This document shows positions 4,859 to 46,169 of a stretch of 64,000 nt of DNA, piece after piece. The notes under the pieces were generated by a model that saw only the letters and a list, made by a program, of their open reading frames with translations, made no database searches and had not been told where the DNA came from. The position numbers were made by a program, and so were the translations under genes. Source of the DNA: Escherichia phage E26; sequence record MN655998.1, one strand, 5' to 3'. How positions within the stretch are numbered: the first letter of the stretch is position 1; every line of letters begins with the position of its first letter.

Positions 4859-4886
4859 ATTATAGCATACTCCCTTCGCATGTCAA
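4859..4886 (-). promoter_or_regulatory. sigma70-type early promoter, -10 inside a hairpin loop
   Basis: TTGACA (4881-4886) N16 TATAAT (4859-4864); GGGAGTA/TACTCCC stem encloses the -10. Confidence 0.6.
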
Positions 4887-6061
4887 GCACTAACTTTTTT
4901 CTTTACTGCTTTCACCTTCTGGCGAATTGCTCGAATCTCTTCGATCTCTTTTTCAGTATCTTTAACAATTTCTTTGCGATTCTGAATATCTTTATCGAGA
5001 TTATCATCAAGTTTAGGCAGCATGTCAATCAAGAACTTTTTAAGGTCTTTCAGGTTGCGAATAACAGTACCTTCACCCATTACCGCCACACCTACACCGT
5101 CCGGCAGATCACCAAACAGTTTAACCAGTTCAGACAGATGATCATGATCTTCTAGTGCTTCTTCCGGTTCAGATGGCAGTTCAACAAAGTTATAACGTTC
5201 ATCATTGCTGATCAAGTGATACCAGCAAAGCCCGAAAGATTTCGGTGTATATTCTACACCATCAATTTCAACCGCGTCAACACTTCCATAATCATCTACT
5301 TTAGTTACCTTAAATCCTTGTCCCAGCTTTTGAACAATTTCAACAACATGACTTGATACAGTTTCAGCGGTAAACCAATATGGCAAATTATGCTGATTTG
5401 GCTTGTAGCGTTCACCTACTTTAAATCTCTGACCATCCGCTTGCATAGAATGAAATTGTTGTTTCGTGATTTCCGCGAAGTATTCAAATTCGCTACCGTC
5501 AAACAAGCAATTCCATTGATCACAAAAACGATCCGCCTTAACAGTTTCACCTTTCGCGGTGATCATGGTAGCTGATCCGTGCAATTCTTCTTCAACTAAA
5601 AAGCCATATTCGACAAAATCAACAAGTTTCATAGCTTCTTTGTGATCTGGATCATGCTCTCCCCAGAATCGCTTAAATTCTTGCAAACCTTCTGGTGTAA
5701 ACGAATAACATTTACCTTTTTCAAAGTAAGTCGGCATTGCATCCTCTTTCTTGTTCATCGCTTCGTATGCCTCTTTTGAGATGCGTTTAAAGTATTTACG
5801 CTCATCGTGCATAATCATAGTAGCCCAATAATAAACGATATCCTCAGCGGAATAAACTACATCTCCAGCTTCAATAGTAATAACATGACCGTTGTCATCT
5901 TTTTCTAATACTTTAAAGCCCTTTTCGACGATTTCAGCAACCCGAATATGACCACGGCGCGAAGCATCGGTCAGAATAATTGAATAGCGAGAAAAGTCTA
6001 GAAACTCATCTTTACCACCTTCACGGAATGCATAGTAATGACCTTCAAAGAATTTAGCCAT
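4883..6061 (-). CDS. hypothetical protein, paralog family A (two copies of a shared domain)
   Basis: 392 aa; shares ERKYFKRIxK and GFKV(L/T) motifs with the next two ORFs; ATG at 6061. Confidence 0.6.
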   Translation of the reverse strand: MAKFFEGHYYAFREGGKDEFLDFSRYSIILTDASRRGHIRVAEIVEKGFKVLEKDDNGHVITIEAGDVVYSAEDIVYYWATMIMHDERKYFKRISKEAYEAMNKKEDAMPTYFEKGKCYSFTPEGLQEFKRFWGEHDPDHKEAMKLVDFVEYGFLVEEELHGSATMITAKGETVKADRFCDQWNCLFDGSEFEYFAEITKQQFHSMQADGQRFKVGERYKPNQHNLPYWFTAETVSSHVVEIVQKLGQGFKVTKVDDYGSVDAVEIDGVEYTPKSFGLCWYHLISNDERYNFVELPSEPEEALEDHDHLSELVKLFGDLPDGVGVAVMGEGTVIRNLKDLKKFLIDMLPKLDDNLDKDIQNRKEIVKDTEKEIEEIRAIRQKVKAVKKKVSA

Positions 6062-6124: not shown

Positions 6125-6685
6125 TTAAAGTGACTTTTGGATCTCTTTCAGTTCAGCTACTTTATCGGCGCTGAATTTAGCGTAGGTATCATGTCGAATA
6201 ATTTCACTTTCAAGAAAGGTTTCCAGCCGAGATCTATTTTCAATAAGGAACTCTTTCAGGTCTTCCGCGTTCTTGATAAAGATTTTATTGTCAGTAATGT
6301 CATCTTCAATCGCAAAGGAGATAGAGCGAACTTTACCAAACAAGTTAATCAGATCTTCCAGAGATTCTTCTTTCTTAACTGGTTTCATTTCTTCAAACTG
6401 CTTTTTAGTGATGCGTTTAAAGTATTTGCGCTCGCTTGCATCAATCATGATTGACGCACCCTCATAATCATGAGTTTCTACCAAATACACTTTACCCATA
6501 ACATTAACCGTAAGAACTTTAAAGCCCCTGTGAAGCACACCATACAGGAACTTGTTATGTTGTGGATAGCGTTTAACAAATTCCTCTGCGGACTCAGCAT
6601 TACGGAAAGTGTAATAACGACCTCGTTCAAAAACAGCATCATTTGAAGACTTAGCTGGATACAATTTATACGTTTTCTGTACCAT
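6125..6685 (-). CDS. hypothetical protein, paralog family A
   Basis: ATG at 6685 with AGAGGA RBS (track start further upstream lacks RBS); ERKYFKRITK and GFKVL motifs shared with 4883..6061. Confidence 0.55.
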   Translation of the reverse strand: MVQKTYKLYPAKSSNDAVFERGRYYTFRNAESAEEFVKRYPQHNKFLYGVLHRGFKVLTVNVMGKVYLVETHDYEGASIMIDASERKYFKRITKKQFEEMKPVKKEESLEDLINLFGKVRSISFAIEDDITDNKIFIKNAEDLKEFLIENRSRLETFLESEIIRHDTYAKFSADKVAELKEIQKSL

Positions 6686-6699
6686 AATACAATCCTCTA

Positions 6700-6972
6700 T
6701 CATTTCACTAATTGAACAGCACGAAACAGAATGCGGTCACACGGAAGAAGCATAAATTCCCAACGCGGATCAAAGTCTTTAGCGGTATATGTTTTCCCAT
6801 CAACCGAGATTTCACTTACATAACCAATAGGTGACACTTTAAGAACAGTAAATCCATTCTTGATGACTTCGTAGGTATCTTTCAAACCTTCGTAGTCATC
6901 CTCTAAGAAGTCTTTACGTGCTTGCTCAGATTTAAAAACATAGGCAACACCGGATTTAAACATCTTACGCAT
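6700..6972 (-). CDS. hypothetical protein, paralog family A (single domain)
   Basis: 90 aa; GFTVLKV motif resembles N-terminal domain of neighbours; ATG at 6972 with AAGGAG RBS. Confidence 0.5.
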   Translation of the reverse strand: MRKMFKSGVAYVFKSEQARKDFLEDDYEGLKDTYEVIKNGFTVLKVSPIGYVSEISVDGKTYTAKDFDPRWEFMLLPCDRILFRAVQLVK

Positions 6973-7003
6973 TGTTGATTCTCCTTCTTGATTAGATGGG
7001 AGT

Positions 7004-7032
7004 ATTTTACTACTCCCATTTCATGCTGTCAA
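7004..7032 (-). promoter_or_regulatory. sigma70-type early promoter, -10 inside a hairpin loop
   Basis: TTGACA (7027-7032) N17 TAAAAT (7004-7009); GGGAGTA/TACTCCC stem. Confidence 0.6.
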
Positions 7033-7035
7033 CTA

Positions 7036-7509
7036 CTATCTTAATCTTTGTATAAATTGTTTCTTATACTTCTTCGTGATCTCTTCTCTTGTATCAGCGT
7101 CACAATAATCGAAACCTTCTGCGTCCATAATAGCAACCATCTCCGCGCGTGTCAAGCGTGAAAATCGTTTTACTTTATCAACAGCATATTGAGGATGTAA
7201 ATGATTGTTGGTGTAGTCTCCTTTGATGTAATTAACATAGTTTGTCGCCCAAACAACGAAATCAGCACCTAAAGCACCAACACCAAACCGTTTAAAGTCT
7301 CCGGTCAACGATCCTTCTAGGCGGTTGCAACACGAATGAAGCAATCCCCTTACGCGGCCTTGCCCTTTACCATCTAGATCGTGGTCGTGGTCAAGATGGT
7401 TTTTGCTCATATCCTCAAAAAGTGGCAATTGACAAAGGGGGCAAATGCCCCCCTGTTTTTCGAATAGTTCTTGTTTGTACTCTTTAGCACTCTTAGCAGT
7501 CAGTAACAT
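7036..7509 (-). CDS. 49: endonuclease VII (Holliday junction resolvase, T4 gp49-like)
   Basis: Cys-rich zinc motif and HLDHDH motif recalled from T4 endonuclease VII; ATG at 7509 with GGAGGG RBS (track start is TTG). Confidence 0.85.
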   Translation of the reverse strand: MLLTAKSAKEYKQELFEKQGGICPLCQLPLFEDMSKNHLDHDHDLDGKGQGRVRGLLHSCCNRLEGSLTGDFKRFGVGALGADFVVWATNYVNYIKGDYTNNHLHPQYAVDKVKRFSRLTRAEMVAIMDAEGFDYCDADTREEITKKYKKQFIQRLR

Positions 7510-7533
7510 AAATTCACCCTCCAAAGAAGGTAT

Positions 7534-7815
7534 TTAACCATGAATCTTGTTTTTGACTACAAAGGATCGGAACTCATCAAAGCCACCAATATAATCACCA
7601 TCATAGAAAATCTGCGGCATGGTGGCAATAACTTCTACCCCTGCGCGATCCTGAATATCGGCAATGATAGAATCAATCTTTACGGGGCGACCGTTTTCGT
7701 CAACACCATCATTAACCGGAATGTAGATGTAAGGGATCTTACGCGATTCACAAAGGCGCTTTGCATTCTGGCAATACTTACAGTTGTAACCTTCAAAACC
7801 AAAAATTTCTACCAT
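7534..7815 (-). CDS. nrdC: glutaredoxin/thioredoxin NrdC
   Basis: CxxC active site (CKYC) near N-terminus and MPQ(I/V)F...GG motif as in T4 thioredoxin; ATG at 7815. Confidence 0.8.
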   Translation of the reverse strand: MVEIFGFEGYNCKYCQNAKRLCESRKIPYIYIPVNDGVDENGRPVKIDSIIADIQDRAGVEVIATMPQIFYDGDYIGGFDEFRSFVVKNKIHG

Positions 7816-7823
7816 ATTATACC

Positions 7824-8636
7824 TCAATCTACGTTAGTTACATAAACTTCTTGCGTATCAGAAGACTTGCCACCTGAACGGTCTAGGCAATAGGTCTTAT
7901 TCAACAGGACGCAGTTTAAATCATTCCGCTTGATAAAGTCAAGAAGATGATCGTTTACCTTTCCCTTATGATGCGTGACATTACTGATACCAAACTGAAA
8001 ACCACGCGCCATAATAGATTCCACCCACCGATAGAATTTAATCTCTTCCTCGTCACTCCAGAACTTATTATATTCCGCAGAAGTGATAAGGTACGGCGGG
8101 TCCAAATAAACGAAATCACCTGGCAAGATCTCGATCTCGTCATAACGACCAGACGTAAAACTGATTCGACCGTCTTTGTTTTCTTCCTTAAAATTCAGGA
8201 CACGCTCTACCGCGTTTTCGTTAAAAGTCCGGCGACCAAAATTAGCATTAAATTCGCCCTTTCGGTTATGGCGGTTAATGTTGCTAAAACTGTGCTGAAT
8301 CAACACAAACAGCGATAGCGGATCTGGATTCTCGTTATACTTCTTACGGAATGCCATGTAAGCGTCTTTATCATCACGAGACAAACCATTTTCGGAAATA
8401 ATCCGATTGATTGTAGAAACCGGATCAGGACACGCATCAATGGCCTTGTAAGCGTCAATTAAACGATGGTCATAGTCATTAGCCAACACATCACCTTCGA
8501 CGTACAGAGACACGCTCAAACCGCCACAAAAGGCATCAACAAAGCGGTTATAGTGCTTAGGGAAATACTTACTAACACCTGGCAATAGCTTTTCCTTATT
8601 GCCAGTATAGGGAATTAAACCTAATGCTTTCTTCAT
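7824..8636 (-). CDS. dam: DNA adenine methyltransferase Dam (GATC-type, DPPY motif)
   Basis: 270 aa; IPYTGNK, FCGGLSV and DFVYLDPPY motifs matching T4 Dam; ATG at 8636. Confidence 0.88.
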   Translation of the reverse strand: MKKALGLIPYTGNKEKLLPGVSKYFPKHYNRFVDAFCGGLSVSLYVEGDVLANDYDHRLIDAYKAIDACPDPVSTINRIISENGLSRDDKDAYMAFRKKYNENPDPLSLFVLIQHSFSNINRHNRKGEFNANFGRRTFNENAVERVLNFKEENKDGRISFTSGRYDEIEILPGDFVYLDPPYLITSAEYNKFWSDEEEIKFYRWVESIMARGFQFGISNVTHHKGKVNDHLLDFIKRNDLNCVLLNKTYCLDRSGGKSSDTQEVYVTNVD

Positions 8637-9067
8637 TATCCCTTCCTCAAATAAGTTCGCTCAATCTCTACCAGTTCGAAAAAATCTTGCCAGTCGCAAG
8701 GAAAATTGCAGTTTCCGAAATGATCCTCTTTGTAAAGTTCTTTACCGGATGGCAGCTTAATATCTGTTACGCTGTAGTATCCGCAACAATCGCAATCACC
8801 CTCTGTATATTCTGTTTTGGTAGGAATATCCATCATTGCCAGATACAAAGGCACATCGTCTTGCTCAAAGTTCATGTAACCTTCATGGTCGAATGAAACA
8901 AAGTTATCATCACCACCGAAAGGGATATAATGGTCATAATCTGTTACAGGTTGACCGTGTAATTCCCATTCTACAATTTTAACATTACCGCTAAACTTGA
9001 TACCCATAATTTCAACAATAAAATGAGTATCGTCAATGTAAATCTTACCAGGAGTTGGATAAACCAT
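8636..9067 (-). CDS. hypothetical protein
   Basis: ORF with ATG at 9067; operon-like packing with neighbours. Confidence 0.5.
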   Translation of the reverse strand: MVYPTPGKIYIDDTHFIVEIMGIKFSGNVKIVEWELHGQPVTDYDHYIPFGGDDNFVSFDHEGYMNFEQDDVPLYLAMMDIPTKTEYTEGDCDCCGYYSVTDIKLPSGKELYKEDHFGNCNFPCDWQDFFELVEIERTYLRKG

Positions 9068-9077
9068 TATATAATCC

Positions 9078-9371
9078 TCATATCTCAGAGAATAGAATCT
9101 CTGTTAGCTTCACTGACTGCTCTCTGAATGTTAGCGTATACTCGAAAGGAAAGTCAACACCCAATTTCAAAAGAGAATAGCCTACCGCCTCTTTATGCTT
9201 ATCGGTTAGGGCGATCCTAACCAATTCCCGTTGAATCTCTTTAGGCGGTGAATGGATAGTAACACGGGTATCATGTAATGTCCAGTCACCATTACGAATC
9301 AGGATTAACGGTTTATCGTCATTAAAGATCACCGACCCCTTTCCGGTCGGTGAGTGTTTTATACTAATCAT
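9078..9371 (-). CDS. hypothetical protein
   Basis: ORF; first ATG at 9371 (track start is TTG). Confidence 0.45.
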   Translation of the reverse strand: MISIKHSPTGKGSVIFNDDKPLILIRNGDWTLHDTRVTIHSPPKEIQRELVRIALTDKHKEAVGYSLLKLGVDFPFEYTLTFREQSVKLTEILFSEI

Positions 9372-9585
9372 CAAATTCTAAGAAATATTCTGGAACGATA
9401 TAACCGTTAAAGTCATTGCACTTATAAAAATGTGGTGCATTTAATGCTGGATGAGCGTTTGTAAAGAGTTTACCCTCTAGAAACAGAATGTAATTAATAG
9501 GTCTTATACCGACAGAATCAGGGTCTAATCCTTTTTCTCTCAGTTCAGCCAGCGTTAAAACTCGTCCAGATCGTAACTTAGCCAT
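9364..9585 (-). CDS. hypothetical protein
   Basis: ORF with ATG at 9585. Confidence 0.45.
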   Translation of the reverse strand: MAKLRSGRVLTLAELREKGLDPDSVGIRPINYILFLEGKLFTNAHPALNAPHFYKCNDFNGYIVPEYFLEFDD

Positions 9586-9871
9586 GATTTACCCCCAATT
9601 CATCAAGATTGTGTCGCAGCATTTCAGAGTATTTTTCTACTTCCTTAATCTTAGTGTGGATCTCCACGATCTCATCTTCACTATCAGAAAGTTTAATGGC
9701 AATAGCGGTACTGCTTTTACCCGCTTTCATAGTCTCTTTCAGTTCAACCAACAGGTCCGCGTGTTTCAGTAGCAGTTCTTCACGTCGAACATAAGCGACG
9801 GTCAAAGCCTCATCAGCGATTTCTAAAGCATTTTCAGCGACACCAACAACCATTTTACGAGTAGACAGCAT
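9578..9871 (-). CDS. hypothetical protein
   Basis: ORF with ATG at 9871. Confidence 0.45.
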   Translation of the reverse strand: MLSTRKMVVGVAENALEIADEALTVAYVRREELLLKHADLLVELKETMKAGKSSTAIAIKLSDSEDEIVEIHTKIKEVEKYSEMLRHNLDELGVNHG

Positions 9872-9885
9872 AAATTCACCTCACA

Positions 9886-10194
9886 TTATTTCACGTTAAC
9901 GCCGCCATCAATCCAGCCGACGCTATTTGGTTTAACAGTTTTACCATAGGATGCATACTTAATCAAGCATGGTTTAACATCATTATCAAATCTTCCTAAG
10001 CGTACTCCCAAATCAGGAATATCCATGTAAGCGGCTTTATATCCCCATGTACAATATTCAGCATCAATCTCAACCGGACGGCCTTTAAAAGCATACACTA
10101 CACCGTAACGGTCAACGATAACATAGCGATAGCCAGCCGGAAGATACACAGTTTCGCCGTAAACTTTAACTGGAGTAGCAGAAGAGATAAACAT
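9886..10194 (-). CDS. hypothetical protein
   Basis: ORF with ATG at 10194, first gene behind promoter at 10229-10257. Confidence 0.5.
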   Translation of the reverse strand: MFISSATPVKVYGETVYLPAGYRYVIVDRYGVVYAFKGRPVEIDAEYCTWGYKAAYMDIPDLGVRLGRFDNDVKPCLIKYASYGKTVKPNSVGWIDGGVNVK

Positions 10195-10228
10195 AATATA
10201 TTCCTCACATCGTTCATTTGATGCGGCT

Positions 10229-10257
10229 ATTATAGGATAACCGCATTTTCATGTCAA
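10229..10257 (-). promoter_or_regulatory. sigma70-type early promoter (TTGACA-N17-TATAAT)
   Basis: Minus-strand -35 at 10252-10257, -10 at 10229-10234. Confidence 0.6.
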
Positions 10258-10263
10258 CAGTTT

Positions 10264-10572
10264 TTAAAAATCTTCTTCCGGTTTATATCGACCGTCGTCT
10301 TCTTGTTTTGGGCTGAATCCGGTATGTTTGCGCGGCTTCGCTTCCGGTTTACCCGCAATCATCAAACCAAAACATTTCAGCCCCTTATAACACATAACAA
10401 TATAAACTACTGTCCACGTTATAGGCCAGATGATTGCGGCAATACAAAATGCTCCTGTATCGACCTCTTTCGTGTCCTTATCGAATCTGGCATACAAGCA
10501 GAATATAAGATACGAGATCATTGCACCCGTAGGCCAGATATAAAGCACATTAACAATATCTTGTGTTGTCAC
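10264..10572 (-). CDS. hypothetical membrane protein
   Basis: Hydrophobic segments; probable GTG start at 10572 five nt after in-frame AAGGAGG, just past upstream stop; start uncertain. Confidence 0.4.
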   Translation of the reverse strand: MTTQDIVNVLYIWPTGAMISYLIFCLYARFDKDTKEVDTGAFCIAAIIWPITWTVVYIVMCYKGLKCFGLMIAGKPEAKPRKHTGFSPKQEDDGRYKPEEDF

Positions 10573-11224: not shown

Positions 11225-11507
11225 TTCGTGCAATCTTCCTTTCATGATTTCGTTGGTTCTTGTCTTCACACTTTACCCACTCAACAAGATCTTTACCTAA
11301 CTCGAAAGCCCATTCTCGGTCTTGCTTTACGTTTTGTAGGTATGGGCTTTCCGACACTCGACGAAGTGATCTTGTCGTAACAAGAATGATCCCAGGAATG
11401 GTCGGATGTTCTTTTCCATATACAATAGGACGCGAGTCACTATCAATACCTTGTAAGAAGGTGTATCCTGAATCACTTAGAATCATATACTTTTTCATTT
11501 CACACAT
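11169..11507 (-). CDS. hypothetical protein
   Basis: ORF; ATG at 11507 overlaps upstream stop (TGATG coupling). Confidence 0.45.
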   Translation of the reverse strand: MCEMKKYMILSDSGYTFLQGIDSDSRPIVYGKEHPTIPGIILVTTRSLRRVSESPYLQNVKQDREWAFELGKDLVEWVKCEDKNQRNHERKIARNVHRKKLDEIKNRILQSM

Positions 11508-11764
11508 CACAGATTCCTCAACCAGTTATTAAAGCGAGCAAACCATGATGCTTTTCGTGCTTCTTTTACTTTATGTGCACGAAAACCACTGAAACACCAT
11601 TCATAATCATCACCGAAACATGATTCAACAGGAACACCCGCATTTCGTAGTTCTCTGGTCTTTATCATGAATCCTTGACATAAGGGTCGACCTTCAACAA
11701 TGATAGGAAGTTTAACTTTTTCCATGAAAGTATACCCAGCACGGTCAATAATTTCAATCTTCAT
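11507..11764 (-). CDS. hypothetical protein, paralog family B
   Basis: MKIEIID...PIIVEGR...AGVP motif shared with 11783..11980 and 14329..14550. Confidence 0.5.
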   Translation of the reverse strand: MKIEIIDRAGYTFMEKVKLPIIVEGRPLCQGFMIKTRELRNAGVPVESCFGDDYEWCFSGFRAHKVKEARKASWFARFNNWLRNL

Positions 11765-11782
11765 AATATAATCCTCAATTAG

Positions 11783-11980
11783 TTATACCGCCCAGGCTTC
11801 ATTTGCACGAAAACACCATTCATACTCAGGAAAATAACCTTTAATTGGCACGCCAGCTTTTTGTAGTTCCTGCGTTTCTACAAGATAATCAAGCCCATAA
11901 CGACGACCTTCCACGATGATAGGAAGTTTAACGCCATTCATGAAAGAAAATCCACCATCATCAATAATTTCAATTTTCAT
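11783..11980 (-). CDS. hypothetical protein, paralog family B
   Basis: N-terminal MKIEIIDxxG(F/Y)xFM motif shared with adjacent ORF. Confidence 0.5.
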   Translation of the reverse strand: MKIEIIDDGGFSFMNGVKLPIIVEGRRYGLDYLVETQELQKAGVPIKGYFPEYEWCFRANEAWAV

Positions 11981-12224
11981 TTACATTGTCTCCATAGATC
12001 TTTCCAGCAATATCAATTTCACCAGCGCGAACATCTAGGATAAGATGCGGTAGGTGTATGCAGTTTTCCCACCCTACGCGCTTCATTTCTTCTACGGTAA
12101 CGTAAGCCCACCCGTTCGCTGTAATAAAGTCTACTTCAACCTTGAGAGGAAAGCAAGACTTTTCTATGTCTTCGAATCCGACAATATGTTTTGTTGTTGA
12201 ATATGGAATATATCCGGTGATCAT
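11970..12224 (-). CDS. hypothetical protein
   Basis: ORF with ATG at 12224. Confidence 0.45.
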   Translation of the reverse strand: MITGYIPYSTTKHIVGFEDIEKSCFPLKVEVDFITANGWAYVTVEEMKRVGWENCIHLPHLILDVRAGEIDIAGKIYGDNVNEN

Positions 12225-13494: not shown

Positions 13495-14274
13495 TTACAC
13501 GCGAGCACCGTAGATCGTGCCTACTTTATCCCAGCGAGGGGCATTGCCAGTAACAGCCTTACCAGCCGCACCGCCATTATATTCCGATCCCTGTCCACGG
13601 ATATTACATTTACCACCAGCACCGCCAGCATCACCACCGTTACCGCCATTATATACACCGTTGACAGACCCTTTACCTGGCGCGGAAATAGTACCAGCAG
13701 TAGCACCCCGTTCCATATTAGCAGACCCACCGGCAGCACCAAACGGACGCCCACCACCACCGCCAAAGGTTAATCTCATTTGTGAAAAAGGAGAATAATA
13801 CCCACCGCCGCCACCACCACCGCCACCACAAATAGCGCCGTTATTTGTGATGCGTAAGCGTGTGCCTATACCGTTGTTAATTGCATTACCACCAGCACCA
13901 CCAGCGGAGTTATTGCCACCATTACCACCACGCCCCCAAACATGAACACCGGGGTTAATGATCAATGTTACATATTCGTTTGTTAACGAGCTAGGGAAGT
14001 CAAGACAAGGAACGCCAGTAGATTGGGAAACAATATTACCCGTGATAGTAATTACTACAGGAGTAGACCCTTGTGCTTTCATCCAGTTAATAAGAGTGTC
14101 TTTATTGTAAGAGTTACTAGCACCAATGCTATAATGAATCTCTTTAGAGCGTCCGACCATTGCCGACATATACGCCGGACGACCTAAGCGTACAGCTTGC
14201 ATTGCGGCGCTCATCCACCGTTGACCAGTCTCGGACACCGCAGATGATCCTACCCATCCAGAAGATATTGCCAT
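13495..14274 (-). CDS. glycine-rich repeat protein of unknown function
   Basis: 259 aa; C-terminal two-thirds dominated by GGxGG/GGNGG repeats, making the DNA locally GC-rich; ATG at 14274 with GAGGAAA RBS. Confidence 0.6.
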   Translation of the reverse strand: MAISSGWVGSSAVSETGQRWMSAAMQAVRLGRPAYMSAMVGRSKEIHYSIGASNSYNKDTLINWMKAQGSTPVVITITGNIVSQSTGVPCLDFPSSLTNEYVTLIINPGVHVWGRGGNGGNNSAGGAGGNAINNGIGTRLRITNNGAICGGGGGGGGGYYSPFSQMRLTFGGGGGRPFGAAGGSANMERGATAGTISAPGKGSVNGVYNGGNGGDAGGAGGKCNIRGQGSEYNGGAAGKAVTGNAPRWDKVGTIYGARV

Positions 14275-14290
14275 AAAATTTCCTCACAAG

Positions 14291-14310
14291 AAAAGCCCCA
14301 ATTAAGGGGC
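14291..14310 (-). other. intergenic stem-loop upstream of glycine-rich gene
   Basis: Hairpin GCCCC-AATTAA-GGGGC followed by short U-run then RBS. Confidence 0.45.
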
Positions 14311-14328
14311 ATTGATTGATAATATTAC

Positions 14329-14550
14329 TTAGATGACCTCGGCTTCACCATCCAGGAAGAAAGACCATGTTTTGTTAGGATAGCGAAGCGCCCAAGATTC
14401 GGCAGTCTTAACACCAGCTTCGAACAATTGACGGCTGGTTACTTTAGCCATACCATCTTCGATGGCAACGTTTTCAATAATCATCGGGTACTTAGCGCCA
14501 CGCATGAAACCGAAACCAGCGGAAGATTTGATAATTTTAACAGTTGCCAT
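14329..14550 (-). CDS. hypothetical protein, paralog family B
   Basis: KIIKSSAGFGFM...PMIIE...AGV resembles 11507..11980 pair. Confidence 0.5.
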   Translation of the reverse strand: MATVKIIKSSAGFGFMRGAKYPMIIENVAIEDGMAKVTSRQLFEAGVKTAESWALRYPNKTWSFFLDGEAEVI

Positions 14551-14593
14551 TTTTTTGATTCTCCTAGAAAGTGTATCTCGTTTCGATGGATGT

Positions 14594-14622
14594 ATTATGC
14601 ATTAACACCGGATCGCTGTCAA
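14594..14622 (-). promoter_or_regulatory. sigma70-type early promoter (TTGACA-N17-CATAAT)
   Basis: -35 at 14617-14622, -10 at 14594-14599; conserved ATCGAAACGA leader downstream. Confidence 0.6.
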
Positions 14623-14640
14623 CACTTTCTAAGAAAAATT

Positions 14641-14925
14641 TTAAATTAATCGAATATATCCCAGAATTTCAGCACCTTTAGCCAGTCCTAAAACCTCCCA
14701 TTCAAGGTCGCCGTAGTCATAATTTGCAACCATCAGTTCACCATTTTTCATGCAGCAATCATGAGAGAAAATTTGCCCCGCATAAACTACGATAGTAATA
14801 AACTTTCCTGATTCTGGCGGTGTGGAAGACAAAGCGACCATATGACCATTCAGCTTAGTCACCAGTGATGGAACAATAAAATTCGGGCTTACCTGAATGC
14901 AGTTAAATTCGTTTGTGTCTTTCAT
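14641..14925 (-). CDS. hypothetical protein
   Basis: ORF with ATG at 14925. Confidence 0.45.
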   Translation of the reverse strand: MKDTNEFNCIQVSPNFIVPSLVTKLNGHMVALSSTPPESGKFITIVVYAGQIFSHDCCMKNGELMVANYDYGDLEWEVLGLAKGAEILGYIRLI

Positions 14926-15869: not shown

Positions 15870-15900
15870 AAAAACAAAAAAGCCACCCTTTCGGATGGCT
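15870..15900 (-). terminator. rho-independent terminator
   Basis: Hairpin AGCCACCC-TTTC-GGATGGCT followed by U-run on minus strand. Confidence 0.65.
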
Positions 15901-16133
15901 TTTGATTATATTTTATTCACGTCCATTTGTATAGTAGTGTTTGAATCGACCTTTGCTAAACTAGTTAAACATAGTAACCAATTCACCATCCCTTTCCAAT
16001 GATAACCCTTCCTCGTCTTAGACGGGTCTTCCGATTCGGCAGTAATTGAACACGCGAAAGTATGAGGAAACCAAATAGTTGTGTTAATGCTAGTATTCTT
16101 TTACTTATGGTATGCATCCCACGGTGACTAACA

Positions 16134-40800: not shown

Positions 40801-40927
40801 TCCACTGTTTGACCAGTCGGCGGTAACATTCTCTATGTTCCGTGAACTTGTAGATAAACGGTTGAAGGATAATATAGGGAATCCACGCGATCCGAAGAAT
40901 CCGACACAGAGGAAAATTAATGGCTAA
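37841..40927 (+). CDS. 7: baseplate wedge initiator gp7
   Basis: Synteny and size (1028 aa vs about 1032 in T4). Confidence 0.8.
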   Translation: MIKAPSVTSLTIEKLSANQAYITWDDVGENFFYFVELAETRTRDGEIIPVDELSWVNLGYTAEQNWFEDKNLFPEYYYKFRVAVAAEGFEQSKWVETEEFQTFKTNAYNFSMMREFNLANEFIKEKFTYDNREYVKFNTDLIQASLMKEDFVFSPEYANMTNISNYIVVDENFHEIQDHIEKVCIDINRTMLAEMNGVLYLFERFQPIVKVSNDKGQSWKAYKAFNDRVGNPVSRTCVYQSKTTTYVLGYDRIFYGRQASDTRWSADDVRFSDDTITFAKVGDENDLGFDVEVFGVFSRLTGDTTKYAEAMACSDDYLWVGAKDVIRRIRLKNTPVDTVQGSPTFGEKIFDPDVIRVTGNDKAVIQKMDVIDGKLLVFVTGEVKQRYQDPTKPENVVPSDDAGVYLIGSDGLSFQRVFGNTPQEREYIQHGFSNMSTNGDEVFISHYNHHFESILPDPETAAKYELGEAVKYSQEPTYLTDKKIHQTTFRASYDDLRIWELGPQAYYNEADYTWMRRNGVRVWITNDNRPLVVYPEVIYTQEVDTSGILDQNRVNREVYDKGTVTCYLNNVKFEGFKQYASGVMFHKNTGEIIGFYQFNYRVRDQVGVYWKPTNVAFVAELQNQVREVPWVPVHYDREQDPDLRPLLNKMTPDSFLLENENFRKFSEYYLQFLSDGSGTYYNKLKNLIKNKYPREQDAYEYLWSEMNKRNIYADKNKRDAVVRFFESRKSDFYSTKGVEASYKFLFKLLYNEDVEIEVESQAGLEYDIVVSSTNIDEDIVGRTIYTPTGRANVTYLEREYEGGRLRWRVTIHNLIGRFEEGQVIKSEKTAFEGMILVGVRGKELLSSSIDYINRSRSQYTMKIKSALPVSRYANDVMRFVHPVGFGFIGVTLLTMFINSGLSMKHTETIIQSLKNYKFDSGLPSVYPDRVADLDVDGNIKKDPLTGKALYLTSPLIGEEFPVPPEYDQENSELFHGLKASERRFAMSPLFDQSAVTFSMFRELVDKRLKDNIGNPRDPKNPTQRKING

Positions 40928-41915
40928 TGAAAATAGTGTGATCTATCGCTCAATCATTACTAGTAAATTCAGAACGGAAAAACTTCTGAATTTCTATAAT
41001 TCTGTAGGCGATGAGGCAAATCAAATTACAATTTATGGAACGTTTGGACGTTCGGAGCCGTGGTCAGAAAACGAAAAAGAGGTGGGCTTTGCCCCACCTT
41101 ATCCGACCGATTCAACGGCTGGTGTTGTTGACATGTGGACCCATATGATGGGGGCGGTTAAGATTAACAAATCACTTCTTGATGCGGTTATCCCTCGTAA
41201 AGATTGGGGTGATACCGGACAGGATAACCCGCGCACATTCTTTATCAATGACATTGTTGTTGTCAACTCAGCACCATATAACCGAACTGATGTTGGTAGC
41301 GGCTGGATGGTGTATCGCGTAACCGATGTTCCTGATCGCGGTTACTGCTCGATTTCAAGCATTGATGCTAAAGTAGAGTGTTTGAAGTTGGGCGGAAAGT
41401 GGACCCCCACTCATGAATCAATTGCGCCACCTGTAGGAAAGGGCGATTCTATTGATATGGGTGATGGGTATCGTTGGGAATATCTGTACACAATTCCACC
41501 TGATGCGGCGATCAACCGTTGCACCAATGAACATATTGTTGTACCGTTCCCCGATGAACTGCGACAAGATCCGGCGCGTTGGGGCTATGACAATGTGATC
41601 ACCTGGTATAATGACTATAATCTGCTTTATCGGCTGAAAGTAGTAACTTTGCGTTTTCAGGCTTATATGGACTCTGCGCAATTCCCAACTACCGCGTTAG
41701 TGGGTAATACTGGTTTCCGTCAGTTAAGCATTATCCTTAACCCATTGGAAAAGAAAGCACGCCCTAGCGATCCAGACGTTAAAGCGGTTAACGATAAGTA
41801 CCGACCGCAAGACTTAGAGCCACACTCAGGAGAAATGATCTACATGGAAAACCGACAACCTATCGTTCGGTCATTAGATCAAACAGAACTTGTTTCTGTA
41901 TTGTTTGAGTTCTAA
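40920..41915 (+). CDS. 8: baseplate wedge protein gp8
   Basis: Synteny and size (331 aa). Confidence 0.75.
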   Translation: MANENSVIYRSIITSKFRTEKLLNFYNSVGDEANQITIYGTFGRSEPWSENEKEVGFAPPYPTDSTAGVVDMWTHMMGAVKINKSLLDAVIPRKDWGDTGQDNPRTFFINDIVVVNSAPYNRTDVGSGWMVYRVTDVPDRGYCSISSIDAKVECLKLGGKWTPTHESIAPPVGKGDSIDMGDGYRWEYLYTIPPDAAINRCTNEHIVVPFPDELRQDPARWGYDNVITWYNDYNLLYRLKVVTLRFQAYMDSAQFPTTALVGNTGFRQLSIILNPLEKKARPSDPDVKAVNDKYRPQDLEPHSGEMIYMENRQPIVRSLDQTELVSVLFEF

Positions 41916-41929
41916 GTGTATGATTTAAA

Positions 41930-41957
41930 AAGCCAATTCGAGAGAGTTGGCTTTTTC
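41930..41957 (+). terminator. rho-independent terminator after gene 8
   Basis: Hairpin AAGCCAA...TTGGCTT followed by TTTTT. Confidence 0.6.
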
Positions 41958-41968
41958 TATTTTGGGTG

Positions 41969-41997
41969 TTGACAGTCTTGTCTGGTAAAGGTATAAT
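41969..41997 (+). promoter_or_regulatory. sigma70-type promoter (TTGACA-N17-TATAAT) on plus strand inside late region
   Basis: Perfect -35 and -10 hexamers with 17-nt spacer 30 nt upstream of the inserted ORF at 42027. Confidence 0.7.
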
Positions 41998-42026
41998 GCT
42001 CACATCTAAACAACGGAGGATAAATT

Positions 42027-42284
42027 ATGGCACGTCGTAAATTTACAGATAATTGTGAAGCAATTCAGGTATCCCCTTGCGGTTGGGATGTGATCGCGAA
42101 CGGTGAAAAGATCGGCGAGATCATCGATCATACTCATTCATCACTAGCCGATTACACCGATGAACTATGGGAGGGTATCAACTTCATGAATGACACTAAA
42201 CGATTCAAGACTATCGACGAAGCTATCTATTTTGTGTATAATCCAACTTTCGGTATGTGGGGAACTAGAAAATGGCACGCGTAA
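42027..42284 (+). CDS. hypothetical protein (first gene of inserted cassette)
   Basis: 85 aa ORF with strong GGAGGA RBS directly downstream of the promoter. Confidence 0.5.
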   Translation: MARRKFTDNCEAIQVSPCGWDVIANGEKIGEIIDHTHSSLADYTDELWEGINFMNDTKRFKTIDEAIYFVYNPTFGMWGTRKWHA

Positions 42285-42601
42285 ATATTAAATTGCATTA
42301 CACAATGGGTAAACCAAAACATCCAATGCATAAAGTGTTTTGGGGCTTGCATCTTCAAGAAAAATGGCATGATAACTATTGGTTTTGTGACCATGATAAG
42401 AAGTGGCATTCTCAAGATGAAGTTAATGCGATGATGGAACAGGGTATAAAATTTAATTACTCTAATTATGACCATAGCATTACTTGTATTCGAAAATTGA
42501 AACGGTTTATTCGAAAGAATCCGCAATTTAAAAACTTTGTGTTCTTTATGTCTCATGTTTATTTGGGGCATAGCGTTACAGTAACAGCAAAGGTTAAATA
42601 A
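42272..42601 (+). CDS. hypothetical His/Trp-rich protein (second gene of inserted cassette)
   Basis: 109 aa ORF overlapping upstream gene; stop overlaps next start (TAATG). Confidence 0.45.
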   Translation: MARVNIKLHYTMGKPKHPMHKVFWGLHLQEKWHDNYWFCDHDKKWHSQDEVNAMMEQGIKFNYSNYDHSITCIRKLKRFIRKNPQFKNFVFFMSHVYLGHSVTVTAKVK

Positions 42602-43440
42602 TGGCACGACTTTCTAAACAAGAACAAAAATTACACGATCGGGTGATGGAGTTGATTAATTCAGATCGCCCATTGACATATGAAGAAAAAGAATTTTGCT
42701 ATAATAACTATCATGGCGATGGGCTAGGTGGTTCCGGTGCATTCTTTACCCCAGAAGGGCTTGCATGGGATTTTACCATCGATGCACATTGCACAGGAAA
42801 AGTATTAGATCTTTGTGCTGGGATCGGTCGCTTATCTTTTTGTATGTTACATCGTTGTAAGTCAGAAAAGATCGTATGCGTCGAACTCAATCCAGAATTT
42901 GCGCGGATTGGCAAGCGACTATTACCGGAAGCAGAATGGATCACCAGCGATGTATTCGAATTTGAGTCAAACGAAAAATTCGATGTTGTAATTAGCAATC
43001 CACCTTTCGGGAAAATCAATACAACCGACACAAAGGATGTATTTGAGTACACTGGCGGCGAATTTGAATTTAAGGTTATGACGCTAGGGCAAAAGTTTGC
43101 CGATGTTGGCTATTTTATTGTTCCTGTGGGTTCCGCTGGTTTTGCTTATTCCGGCAGACCTTATTATGACGGGACCATGAAGTCTAATAAATATCTAAAA
43201 TGGAGCAAACAAACTGGTTTGGTGACTTATGCCGGATGTGGGATCGATACATCAATCTATCGCGATGAATGGCACAGTACCAACGTTTTAACAGAAGTGG
43301 TTGAGGTTCGGTATTACGAGAAAGAAGCCGTAGAAGCGCCTAAATCGCGTCCTAACAAACAAATAGAAGAAAGTAAGGAGATTACCTTACCGAAACAGGA
43401 AAGCGAGTCTGGGACGCTCTCAGATTTGTTTGGCATTTAA
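42601..43440 (+). CDS. orphan N6-adenine (amino) methyltransferase, gamma-class
   Basis: Motifs FFTP, VLDLCAGIGR (SAM binding) and VVISNPPFG (catalytic NPPF) in N6_Mtase-like order; no adjacent restriction gene. Confidence 0.7.
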   Translation: MARLSKQEQKLHDRVMELINSDRPLTYEEKEFCYNNYHGDGLGGSGAFFTPEGLAWDFTIDAHCTGKVLDLCAGIGRLSFCMLHRCKSEKIVCVELNPEFARIGKRLLPEAEWITSDVFEFESNEKFDVVISNPPFGKINTTDTKDVFEYTGGEFEFKVMTLGQKFADVGYFIVPVGSAGFAYSGRPYYDGTMKSNKYLKWSKQTGLVTYAGCGIDTSIYRDEWHSTNVLTEVVEVRYYEKEAVEAPKSRPNKQIEESKEITLPKQESESGTLSDLFGI

Positions 43441-43445
43441 TTATA

Positions 43446-43470
43446 AGCCGTCCTTGTGGGCGGCTTTTTT
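43446..43470 (+). terminator. rho-independent terminator closing the inserted cassette
   Basis: Hairpin GCCGTCC-TTGT-GGGCGGC followed by TTTTTT. Confidence 0.75.
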
Positions 43471-43480
43471 GTATGTATTT

Positions 43481-43488
43481 TATAAATA
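43481..43488 (+). promoter_or_regulatory. T4-type late promoter (TATAAATA)
   Basis: Exact TATAAATA 28 nt upstream of gene 9 start. Confidence 0.65.
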
Positions 43489-43515
43489 ATACATCATAAC
43501 ATGAGGAATTAAACA

Positions 43516-44370
43516 ATGGCACAAGTTCCAAAGAAAAGAATAGACACCGGTACTGTCGGCAATCCATCGACTGGCGATATCTTATATGATGGCGGCAATA
43601 AAATTAACGATAACTTTGATTCAATATATGACGCATTTGCTGATCAGCGGTTTAAAGACGTAGACCACGGTGTGGGAAGAATGGTTATTCATGCAACCGG
43701 ATACTATCAGAAGCATCCACGTCAAAGCTACGCGGGTTCCGCTGTTGAGATTGGGAGTCTACACGATATCGATACAACTCAAGGCGCACTTATTGCTATT
43801 CTACCTAAAGCAAAGGTCGGCGAGGGTGTTGTATTCATAAATAGTAACGGTAGCCTTTCAACGACGACACCGCTCAATATTCGAACTCAAGCAGGTGATT
43901 CTATTAGCGGTTATTCCGGTGATGCTACAATAACACAACCATTTTCAAAAGTCACTGTTTGGTGTACTGCCGTTGAAGGTAGTCGCGTAACGTGGCGATT
44001 GGGTATCGAAAGTATGTTTACCGATACAACAACGCCATTAGATAAAACAGTTAACGTAACTGGAGTAGCAACAAACGTTGCTATTGCCGCAAAAACAGAA
44101 TACGTTTCCATCAAATTATTAACTACCGCTAGCAATACATCCGGTTCAAAAATGCGTTCAAGTGAAACGCTACTGATGATTGATTCTAAAGCCGGAAAAG
44201 TTTATGCGACGGAATATGCAGTTTTGCAGAAGACAGAAGATGAACTATACATGGTTCGTTATTTCATCGGTTCCGGCGATAAAGTATATGCAGAGTATAA
44301 GGCTACTGGCGAAAATATTCGTTTAGCAGTTAAAGCCGTAGACACTATTAAAATCGGGGTTGCTACATGA
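43516..44370 (+). CDS. 9: baseplate wedge tail fiber connector gp9
   Basis: Synteny and size (284 aa vs about 288 in T4). Confidence 0.75.
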   Translation: MAQVPKKRIDTGTVGNPSTGDILYDGGNKINDNFDSIYDAFADQRFKDVDHGVGRMVIHATGYYQKHPRQSYAGSAVEIGSLHDIDTTQGALIAILPKAKVGEGVVFINSNGSLSTTTPLNIRTQAGDSISGYSGDATITQPFSKVTVWCTAVEGSRVTWRLGIESMFTDTTTPLDKTVNVTGVATNVAIAAKTEYVSIKLLTTASNTSGSKMRSSETLLMIDSKAGKVYATEYAVLQKTEDELYMVRYFIGSGDKVYAEYKATGENIRLAVKAVDTIKIGVAT

Positions 44371-46169
44371 AACAATTAATTAATATCGGTAACGTTGTTG
44401 ATGACGGTACAGGTGATTATTTAAGAAAAGGTGGTCAAAAGATTAATGACAACTTTTCTGAACTTTATACTAAGCTGGGGGATGGTGATATCCCTCATGC
44501 ATCCGGCGCGTGGAAAACTCACACACAACCAGTATTAAAACCAAATTTTGGTGATGCATGGGCGATTAATACAACGAACAACTCTGTTTCTGTTGAATTG
44601 CCTAAAGGAAGCGCGAGTGATTACAATAAAACAATTAAACTTCGTGATGTTTGGCGCTCATGGGCTGCACATAACGTAACATTGAAGCCAGCACAAGGTG
44701 ATACCATTAAGGGATCTCCAATCGACCGTGAGTTGTATAAAGATTTCATGGATGTTGAATTGGTTTATTGTGCTCCTGGACGTTGGGAATATGTCGAAAA
44801 TAAACGAGTAGATACTATCACCACTTCCGATTTAAGCACAGTCGCCAAAGAAGTTTATATTGCAACCGAAGGACAAACAGACTTCCCCAATGTGTTTGGT
44901 TCCAATACTTACAATATTCGAAATGTTGAAGTGTATTATCGCGGTAACTTGCTTTATTATGGCAAGGATTTAACCGATGATTCTAACTATGGTTCAATCG
45001 GTGAAAACGGTGATATTGTTCCGCTGGACGGTAAAAGCATTAAATTACGCTTCCCTTGTTCGGCGGGTGATACCATTCAAATCATAACTTATATGGACGG
45101 TATCGCATCCTTCCGGTCAAGCTATATTACTCATACAATCCGCGTTTATGAAACAGGAATGACCACTTTGGAATCCATCCCTGGTGAAGTTTGGGTTGGT
45201 GAACTAGCTAATAAGAAAGAATTTACTAATGCTGAATTAGGCGTAAGTAAGCGAGATCTTATTAATCCAAATTCATTTGAATTGCTAATCAACGGCACAC
45301 AAATGATTAAAGCGGGTGATGCGGATTTACCTTCCTTTATTTGTGAAGGCGCTGACGGTGAAACGGAAGAAACCTGCGTACTTGCTGGCGGTCAATGGGT
45401 GGAATCTGGGGAAGATTATTCATTGATGTTCGACGAAAACAGCGTGGTGACTGGTATTAAATTATCTAAAGCACTAGATAACCGAGATACTATCACAATT
45501 CGCTGGTTTAATAATGATATCGGAACATTAATGGAATGGGACGGTGTAGGCGGTATTAAAGAAAAAGCAGATAAAATCTATCTTAATAACGAAGATGAAG
45601 TTACTCTGACAAATCGAATTGAATATACCGATTTCCAGAATCCAAGCCAAGCAACTAAACGCCCAATGGAAGATTATACAGGTCGTGTGATGGATATCTA
45701 TTCCATATTCGATATTTTCTATCCTATAGGCACAATTTATGAAAATGCGCATAACCCAGCTAACCCAGCGACCTATATGGGATTTGGTACATGGGTACGG
45801 TATGCGGAAGGTGAATTTTTGGTTGGTTGGTCATCCGATGCAAGCGATCAAAACTTCGCACTAAACAATAACGATCTTGATACACATGGTCAACCTACAC
45901 ACACCGCAGGTGGTAACGGTGGTGATGTTGCATATCAGATCAAGAAAAATATGATTCCTGAATTACAGAGCAGCGATCGAGTTCTTGTAAAAGATGATAA
46001 CGGAAATATTATTATCGGTGGTTGTCAGGTAGATCCTGATGCAGTAGGTCCAGCGTTTACCAAATATCGCGAAGATAATGTTAAAGTTAATCAGGGAAAT
46101 ACTGACCCATCAATGATGGGTATTCTTCCTCCATACAGAACTGTCTATCGTTGGCTAAGGGTAGGTTAA
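44367..46169 (+). CDS. 10: baseplate wedge subunit and tail pin gp10
   Basis: Synteny and size (600 aa). Confidence 0.8.
   Translation: MKQLINIGNVVDDGTGDYLRKGGQKINDNFSELYTKLGDGDIPHASGAWKTHTQPVLKPNFGDAWAINTTNNSVSVELPKGSASDYNKTIKLRDVWRSWAAHNVTLKPAQGDTIKGSPIDRELYKDFMDVELVYCAPGRWEYVENKRVDTITTSDLSTVAKEVYIATEGQTDFPNVFGSNTYNIRNVEVYYRGNLLYYGKDLTDDSNYGSIGENGDIVPLDGKSIKLRFPCSAGDTIQIITYMDGIASFRSSYITHTIRVYETGMTTLESIPGEVWVGELANKKEFTNAELGVSKRDLINPNSFELLINGTQMIKAGDADLPSFICEGADGETEETCVLAGGQWVESGEDYSLMFDENSVVTGIKLSKALDNRDTITIRWFNNDIGTLMEWDGVGGIKEKADKIYLNNEDEVTLTNRIEYTDFQNPSQATKRPMEDYTGRVMDIYSIFDIFYPIGTIYENAHNPANPATYMGFGTWVRYAEGEFLVGWSSDASDQNFALNNNDLDTHGQPTHTAGGNGGDVAYQIKKNMIPELQSSDRVLVKDDNGNIIIGGCQVDPDAVGPAFTKYREDNVKVNQGNTDPSMMGILPPYRTVYRWLRVG

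Follow-up and report, generated by a model that had tools for sequence, protein, structure and literature searches.

Two unrelated orphan methyltransferases in the Krischvirus Escherichia phage E26: a T4-type Dam and a probable DNA methyltransferase with a candidate clamp-binding tail

DNMT1 is a maintenance-type methylase that is brought to new DNA by the sliding clamp PCNA, via a PIP box. In bacteria, the beta-clamp motif QL[SD]LF is usually carried by Pol III alpha, Pol II, Pol IV and Pol V, MutS and MutL, and Hda. The gp45 clamp of the T4 family is bound by interchangeable epitopes, namely the hydrophobic-acidic ends of gp43, gp55 and gp33, which are carried on divergent flexible linkers (PMC2988020); T4 gp43 ends in SLDFLFG and T4 gp55 in SLDFLYEAND, and the co-crystal of an RB69 gp43 peptide with the clamp is a known example of this type of epitope. 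T4 also has an orphan alpha-class (D12) methyltransferase, Dam (M.EcoT4Dam; PDB 1q0s, 1yfj and 1yfl). Here, a stretch of 64,000 nucleotides (nt) from Escherichia phage E26 (sequence record MN655998.1), referred to as the window, was examined for two genes, a homologue of T4 dam (7824..8636, minus strand) and a second methyltransferase gene, here called MTase2 (42601..43440, plus strand). The DNA is that of a T4-related Krischvirus of the RB49 type, whose cytosine is ordinary. The reading that we consider the probable one is that the window encodes two unrelated orphan DNA methyltransferases, Dam and a replication-coupled MTase2, the latter expressed early and tethered to the clamp.

MTase2 has the same layout as the gp45 ligands gp43, gp55 and gp33, namely an octapeptide of hydrophobic-acidic type at the extreme C-terminus preceded by a divergent flexible linker. 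Its features, with lengths in amino acids (aa), are as follows.

42601..43440, plus strand: MTase2, a gamma-order NPPF amino-methyltransferase of 279 aa, recognized with class-I S-adenosylmethionine (SAM) methyltransferase profiles
42736..42774, plus strand: motif X-like segment GAFFTPEGLAWDF, residues 46–58, with G46–P51 invariant
42802..42837, plus strand: motif I VLDLCAGIGRLS, residues 68–79, with C72–G76 invariant
42997..43008, plus strand: catalytic motif IV NPPF, residues 133–136, with N133, P134 and F136 invariant
43318..43413, plus strand: disordered charged linker, approximately residues 240–271, with a predicted local distance difference test score (pLDDT) of 47–69, below 70 from about residue 240
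43414..43437, plus strand: C-terminal octapeptide TLSDLFGI, proposed as a gp45-clamp-binding epitope from its likeness to the gp43 tail

MTase2 ends in ...ESGTLSDLFGI in the window and in ...TLSDLFDI in RB49. The genes for gp43 and gp45 lie outside the window, and relatives at 95–99% identity stand in for them; the gp43 of RB49, ELT4 and 011D4, the last two being the closest relatives of the window, ends in ...ASLTDLFDI. The Krischvirus MTase2 and gp43 tails are identical at 5–6 of 8 positions, and in RB49, where 6 of 8 are identical, the other two are S/T swaps. Among 1564 RB49 stop-to-stop segments of at least 40 aa, the MTase2 tail alone has at least five of eight identities to the gp43 terminus. 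When the Krischvirus copies were compared, the linker sequence was found to vary while the tail was kept.

We infer that MTase2 rides gp45 clamps loaded on replicating phage DNA. The flexible linker of about 30 residues would present TLSDLFGI as a mimic of the gp43 C-terminus SLTDLFDI that docks on gp45, and the enzyme would methylate the new DNA emerging from the fork, probably at the N6 position of adenine. Such prompt methylation could give fast protection to a genome that lacks cytosine hypermodification. The concept is the same as for DNMT1 and PCNA, but the enzyme class (C5-cytosine), the clamp and the motif are unrelated and the comparison is an analogy only. MTase2, whose binding to gp45 is a prediction, differs from the known gp45 ligands in its enzyme class, as no methyltransferase is listed among them in PMC2988020. 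In the literature searched, coverage of which was incomplete, we found no clamp-binding methyltransferase of phage or bacteria and no description of a clamp tail on MTase2, and one review of the bacterial beta clamp contains no mention of methyltransferases.

Homologues of MTase2 were found in 288 phage records, which include Krischvirus, the RB16/RB43 group, Slopekvirus, Karamvirus, Aeromonas phages and jumbo phages, and none was found in hundreds of gp42-bearing Tequatrovirus and Mosigvirus genomes. They are also common in enterobacterial prophages, where they share 53–61% identity with MTase2 and are located at the prophage edge. No restriction-enzyme gene was seen beside the copies examined. 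The tails fall into several types. In homologues from Rhizobiales prophages, a strict Q-x-[SD]-[LIM]-F motif was present in the last 14 residues in 63 of 120 cases, and nearly all of the remainder had QLNLF, QLDFF or QFDLF variants. Elsewhere in these proteins, 2206 windows of 14 residues were scanned and not one had the strict motif, and the linker ahead of the tail is hypervariable. Copies from IMG/VR contigs of 45–76 kilobases (kb) end in QLSLFDAA, QLDLFGRAA, QADLFGVAA or QASLFGDAA. Judged by its sequence, the QLxLF tail of the Rhizobiales proteins is the canonical bacterial beta-clamp-binding motif; the Rhizobiales and IMG/VR copies end in QLSLF, QLDLF, QADLF or QLNLF followed by G-x-A-A, which sets these proteins, as orphan phage methyltransferases, apart from the usual carriers of the motif. 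MTase2 of the RB16, KP27 and Phynn type has a third kind of conserved tail, ..[ND]LFTFTIE or ..FTFRIE. The enterobacterial prophage copies, at about 238 aa, are without the C-terminal extension seen in the phage copies, and those of Aeromonas phages and jumbo phages are likewise tailless.

A wider reading, to which we give about even credence, is that orphan DNA methyltransferases of the MTase2 family are widespread in phages and prophages and are brought to replicating DNA by a modular C-terminal peptide that binds the sliding clamp. The peptide would be suited to the clamp in use, resembling gp43 in Krischvirus, where the clamp is gp45, and having the form QLxLF in temperate Rhizobiales phages, which would use the beta clamp of the host. 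Some of the tails speak against clamp recruitment. The gp43 tails of the RB16-, KP27- and Phynn-type phages are SLNTLFGDDW and SLSDLFDF, of which the MTase2 tails are no copy, and the MTase2 tail in the window has G where gp43 has D. Strict covariation of the MTase2 and gp43 tails across the T4-like genera was considered and rejected, as it is found only in Krischvirus; RB16 and KP27 share no more than the N/D-L-F core and Phynn does not share even this, so that the tail tracks the polymerase in Krischvirus only. The mismatches in RB16, KP27 and Phynn, together with the enterobacterial prophage, Aeromonas and jumbo-phage copies that work without a tail, would fit an alternative in which MTase2 is a DNA methyltransferase with a tail that resembles gp43 by coincidence or serves another partner (in packaging, regulation or degradation), and methylation is not coupled to the clamp. 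We consider this unlikely, as, judged empirically, a match of this kind would arise by chance in less than 1 in 1500 reading-frame segments, more than 100 homologues independently have a canonical beta-clamp motif in this position, and the arrangement of linker and epitope is that of gp55 and gp33.

The protein itself was examined for its family. MTase2 scored 39.9 bits against MTS (PF05175; cut-off 23) and, marginally, 27.7 bits against Eco57I (PF07669; cut-off 25.3), and it matches phrog_3820, which is labelled 'DNA methyltransferase'. The motifs are in the order X-I-IV, with GAFFTP (residues 46–51), CAGIG (72–76) and NPPF (133–136) invariant in 29 aligned sequences, and the fold is similar to those of solved gamma-class N6-adenine DNA methyltransferases. 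MTase2 is probably an orphan DNA amino-methyltransferase, forming N6-methyladenine in an unspecified motif. Compared with gamma-class enzymes such as M.TaqI, HsdM, M.BseCI, MmeI, the Eco57I-type enzymes and the putative lmo1582/YtxK, it is much smaller, with a core of about 240 aa, and differs in having no separate recognition domain, specificity subunit or restriction partner and in carrying a C-terminal clamp-type peptide.

A DNA target is made less certain by several observations. The score against N6_Mtase (PF02384), 17.2 bits, is below the cut-off of 20.4, and no separate target-recognition domain is evident. Among solved structures, the top sequence matches are the RNA methyltransferases PH1948 and RsmC (E=2.5e-4 to 4.4e-3), and the score for METTL5 is close to that of the best structural match. 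Alternatively, MTase2 might act on the rRNA or tRNA of the host or the phage, as an RNA methyltransferase of METTL5, RsmC or Trm type, and Dam would then be the sole adenine DNA methylase. This possibility also appears improbable to us. The identity of MTase2 to METTL5, PH1948, Ta1320 and RsmC, which form m6A or m2G in rRNA, is just 16–24%, and MTase2 differs from them in having no TRMT112-type partner and in being found in phage and prophage replication modules. To our knowledge, clamp motifs are not known in these RNA enzymes. Assignment as RsmC was rejected, with a score of 29.9 bits against NF007023 where the cut-off is 295.

The public names given to MTase2 are hypothetical, DNA methyltransferase, putative methyltransferase, PrmC and RNA methylase. 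The records of ECD7, 011D4, kaaroe and Makalu_002 have it as 'prmC' or 'release factor glutamine methyltransferase', and TIGR03534 is its best NCBIfam match (E=7.5e-10), which would suggest an enzyme that methylates glutamine in release factors, as PrmC does, or in other proteins. However, the TIGR03534 score of 38.7 bits is far from the cut-off of 199.1, the catalytic motif is NPPF not NPPY, and only residues 64–137 align, so that PrmC/HemK was rejected and a protein substrate of this kind is very improbable. A relationship to the non-specific prophage methylase M.EcoGII was also rejected, as MTase2 has the gamma order and M.EcoGII is described as beta-class in PMC7544214.

An earlier note on this DNA had proposed that the phage has two distinct N6-adenine methylases. 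Dam and an unrelated class-I methyltransferase are both there, the latter at exactly 42601..43440. The N6-adenine DNA target of MTase2 is not established, the closest solved structures being those of RNA methyltransferases.

The location of MTase2 differs between groups. In RB16 (14055..14786 in locus L011) and in Pantoea phage Phynn (14001..14783 in locus L010), the homologue was found between helicase 41 and 61.1/primase 61/gene 56. This is the replication cluster where T4 has dam, and the Krischvirus site is at genes 8/9. In one IMG/VR contig (L073), the homologue directly follows a gene for a DnaB-like helicase. The same contig includes a GcrA-like gene (6630..7313, plus strand), and the genes for the helicase and the clamp-motif methyltransferase lie about 2.7 kb downstream of it; GcrA is a methylation-responsive cell-cycle regulator of alphaproteobacteria.

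In the window, MTase2 is found in a self-contained, terminator-bounded cassette between the late baseplate genes 8 and 9, made up as follows (stems in base pairs, bp).

41927..41956, plus strand: terminator-like hairpin with a 13-bp stem and T-run, just past the gene 8 stop (41915), from a sequence scan
41969..41997, plus strand: perfect sigma-70 (early-type) promoter TTGACA-17-TATAAT, a 12/12 match
42027..42284, plus strand: orfA, 85 aa, phrog_16603, found in Krischvirus only
42272..42601, plus strand: orfB, 109 aa, phrog_12630, found in Krischvirus only, its stop overlapping the MTase2 start
43445..43472, plus strand: intrinsic-terminator-like GC-rich hairpin with a 9-bp stem (6 GC) and T-run that closes the cassette, from a sequence scan
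43481..43488, plus strand: T4-type late promoter TATAAATA for gene 9 (ATG at 43516), from the sequence

A ribosome-binding site is present between the 41969..41997 promoter and orfA. No late promoter for MTase2 was found, TATAAATA being present only after the cassette, ahead of gene 9. MTase2 would be made early, by the host RNA polymerase from its own sigma-70 promoter. Neither orfA and orfB nor the open reading frame (ORF) upstream of dam could be retained as conserved partners, as none has a homologue in any non-Krischvirus locus.

The second subject of the window is dam, whose features are listed here.

7824..8636, minus strand: dam, alpha-class (D12) N6-adenine DNA methyltransferase and T4 Dam orthologue, 270 aa with an ATG start
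8514..8543, minus strand: SAM-binding motif I FVDAFCGGLS, residues 32–41, identical to T4 Dam at F32/G35/S37
8229..8288, minus strand: beta-hairpin corresponding to T4 Dam residues 111–130 (the GATC-reading loop), from alignment to T4 Dam
8091..8102, minus strand: catalytic motif IV DPPY, residues 179–182, from alignment to T4 Dam

Across the region around it (6500–10500), identity is 99.4% with vB_EcoM_011D4 and about 96% with RB49, JSE and Phi1, and each of the 58 records that matched is from Krischvirus (the 'pseudo-T-even' RB49 group). The relatives behave in the same way for the region 40900–44400. Gene order in RB49 and vB_EcoM_011D4 is the same as in the window, which spans roughly 32–96 kb of RB49, window position 7824 corresponding to RB49 position 39922.

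The earlier note had recognized a clear Dam homologue at 7824–8636, and this was confirmed with the coordinates exact. The ORF matched PF02086 (D12 N6-adenine methyltransferase) with E=1.5e-29 and 104 bits (cut-off 22) and TIGR00571 ('Dam family') with 149.5 bits (cut-off 114.85), and the T4 Dam crystal chain 1yfj aligned with it from end to end (E=2.8e-65). Global identity to T4 Dam is 49% (47–49% over the comparisons made). The order is that of the alpha class, with F36-C-G-G39 (the FxGxG SAM motif) N-terminal to D179-P-P-Y182. In the hairpin, F117, S118, N119, R122, F133, G134 and R136 correspond to F111, S112, N113, R116, F127, G128 and R130 of T4 Dam, and the N-terminal lysine of the T4 Dam type, K14, is kept. 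In T4 Dam-DNA structures, the counterparts of these hairpin residues belong to the GATC-reading loop. Like T4 Dam, the window Dam is an orphan and has FxGxG, DPPY and most of the GATC-hairpin residues; it differs in 11 extra residues and in three substitutions in or near the hairpin (M114 to I, P126 to N and K129 to R).

Dam most likely methylates the adenine of GATC. The three substitutions might instead indicate an enzyme that is inactive or has a specificity other than GATC. We regard this as quite unlikely, as conservation extends to K14, the catalytic DPPY and the other residues of the hairpin, the protein is 91–100% conserved over 58 Krischvirus genomes and has orthologues at 50–53% identity in RB43, Slopekvirus and Karamvirus, and GATC is not avoided when other palindromes are. 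A literature search found no experimental work on RB49 Dam and no Krischvirus methylome.

The earlier note had also described the neighbourhood of dam as unlike that in T4, which proved to be correct. In T4, dam is found between primase gene 61 and gene 56, next to oriA and about 30 kb from nrdC and gene 49, which are themselves four genes apart. In RB49, dam is missing from this site, where genes 56 and 61 are direct neighbours, a T4 Dam query gives a single locus, and the GenBank and RefSeq annotations already have the order dam-nrdC-49. Between T4 and RB49-type phages, other orthologues have diverged to 45% (gp49), 49% (gp56) and 55% (gp43) identity. As the divergence of Dam is typical of these surrounding orthologues, a relocated ancestral gene fits better than a recent capture. 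The best explanation of the sequence comparisons would be that Dam is a vertical orthologue of T4 Dam that moved from the 61/56 replication cluster to a position upstream of nrdC and 49. The following features surround it.

7534..7815, minus strand: nrdC (glutaredoxin/thioredoxin), PF00462, 36.7% identical to T4 NrdC
7036..7509, minus strand: gene 49, endonuclease VII, PF02945 and PF09124, with its ATG at 7509
7515..7532, minus strand: hairpin between nrdC and 49 over the GGAGGG ribosome-binding site of gene 49, from a terminator-like scan and the sequence, with a putative function
8636..9067, minus strand: Krischvirus-specific ORF of 143 aa, phrog_8157, overlapping the dam start by 1 nt
10229..10257, minus strand: nearest upstream perfect sigma-70 consensus promoter, TTGACA-17-TATAAT, a consensus match only

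The dam stop codon (TGA, 7824–7826) is followed by 8 nt and then by the nrdC ATG at 7815 on the same strand, and a GAGG ahead of this ATG overlaps the stop codon. The gene 49 product is 44.6% identical to T4 gp49 over 157 aa, and the hairpin at its ribosome-binding site resembles the translational control of the early transcripts of T4 gene 49. A scan for terminators found none that was convincing between dam, nrdC and 49. The tight co-directional packing makes a dam-nrdC-49 operon plausible, and dam probably belongs to a long early transcription unit, in which its translation would be coupled to that of its neighbours.

A GC-rich inverted repeat with perfect 9-bp arms, TCACCGACC...GGTCGGTGA, is found at 9329..9353, amid the small early ORFs that lie upstream of dam, and has a terminator-like score on each strand. 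Elsewhere on the minus strand there are three adjacent 'frd.2/goF-like' paralogues (4883..6061, 6125..6703 and 6700..6972) with a repeated ...GFKVL...G.V... module, and three small adjacent ORFs at 11507..12224, two of which start with MKIEIID...LPIIVEGR. Both sets look like tandem duplications.

Genome-wide searches for hydroxymethylcytosine genes covered RB49, which is 96–98% identical to the window phage, and the window. When T4 proteins were used as tblastn queries, the dCMP hydroxymethylase gp42 gave a single weak match (E=0.006), to the td (thymidylate synthase) paralogue, the glucosyltransferases alpha-gt and beta-gt gave nothing below E=0.3, and a gp56 homologue was present. The td gene of RB49 (NC_005066.1, 136870..138102), the sole weak gp42 match in that genome, is annotated as 410 aa and is noticeably longer than T4 td, at about 286 aa. 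Published work agrees: RB49 is without genes for the hydroxymethylase and glucosyltransferases, and enzymes sensitive to cytosine modification cut its DNA (PMC4041780), and these genes are missing from Krischvirus genomes (PMC13390438). Neither the hydroxymethylcytosine pathway nor a second Dam locus was found, the combination that the earlier note had named as telling against it.

Published findings differ for two Krischvirus phages that match the window at about 97%, SAP and TB34. Glucosylated hydroxymethyl-type cytosines were reported in SAP, an unexplained exception in which no pathway genes were found (PMC13390438). TB34, which is 99.96% identical to SAP, has canonical bases, with no modification detectable by nucleoside high-performance liquid chromatography–mass spectrometry (HPLC-MS) (PMC13390438). 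A third 'DNA methyltransferase' of RB49, RB49p189, is encoded outside the window (NC_005066.1, 115890..116606; 15890..16606 in locus L013, minus strand). This 238-aa protein is unrelated to Dam or MTase2, and its FAFPPC and MIENP motifs recall C5-cytosine methylases, with a sub-threshold match to PF00145 (E=0.059). RB49p189 may bear on the cytosine modification of SAP, and with this third methyltransferase-like protein a total of two methylases may be an undercount.

In the window and the RB49 genome, the 4-bp palindromes GGCC, AGCT and GTAC are depleted (observed/expected ratios of 0.40, 0.60 and 0.72, respectively). The ratio for GATC, 1.08, is the highest among the 16 4-bp palindromes, and there are 366 GATC sites in the window. 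This composition looks like restriction avoidance in a phage with unmodified cytosine and protected GATC sites. Two points weigh against the reading of MTase2 given above: AGCT and GTAC contain adenine and are still avoided, and the absence of detectable modification in TB34 means that any methylation is sparse. Together they make it unlikely that MTase2 is non-specific. Beyond the continued avoidance of AGCT and GTAC, palindrome statistics were uninformative as a means of finding the MTase2 target. Heavy reliance on adenine methylation, as suggested in the earlier note, is not supported in so strong a form, given the HPLC-MS result for TB34. Its suggestion that adenine methylation compensates for absent hypermodification finds a correlate in the presence of the MTase2 family in T4-like phages without gp42, but this is correlative only and T4 itself has Dam.

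The Dam finding adds nothing new, as the gene order has been deposited for RB49 and about 58 relatives and the lack of hydroxymethylcytosine has long been known; dam, nrdC, 49 and a second 'DNA methyltransferase' are all in the existing RB49 annotation. The clamp-type tails provide a concrete and cheaply testable hypothesis for the substrate of MTase2 (DNA) and for its action (coupled to replication via the sliding clamp). If it is correct, the 'tool-belt' of the gp45 clamp of phages and of the bacterial beta clamp would gain methyltransferases, and MTase2 would give prokaryotes and viruses a counterpart to the coupling of DNMT1 to PCNA. It would also account for how a T4-like phage with unmodified cytosine methylates its DNA quickly enough to outrun host restriction, giving such phages a rapid route to self-protection through a portable peptide that is swapped to suit the clamp. 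This would have a bearing on phage-host arms races, on the choice of therapeutic Krischvirus and on engineered clamp-tethered DNA modifiers.

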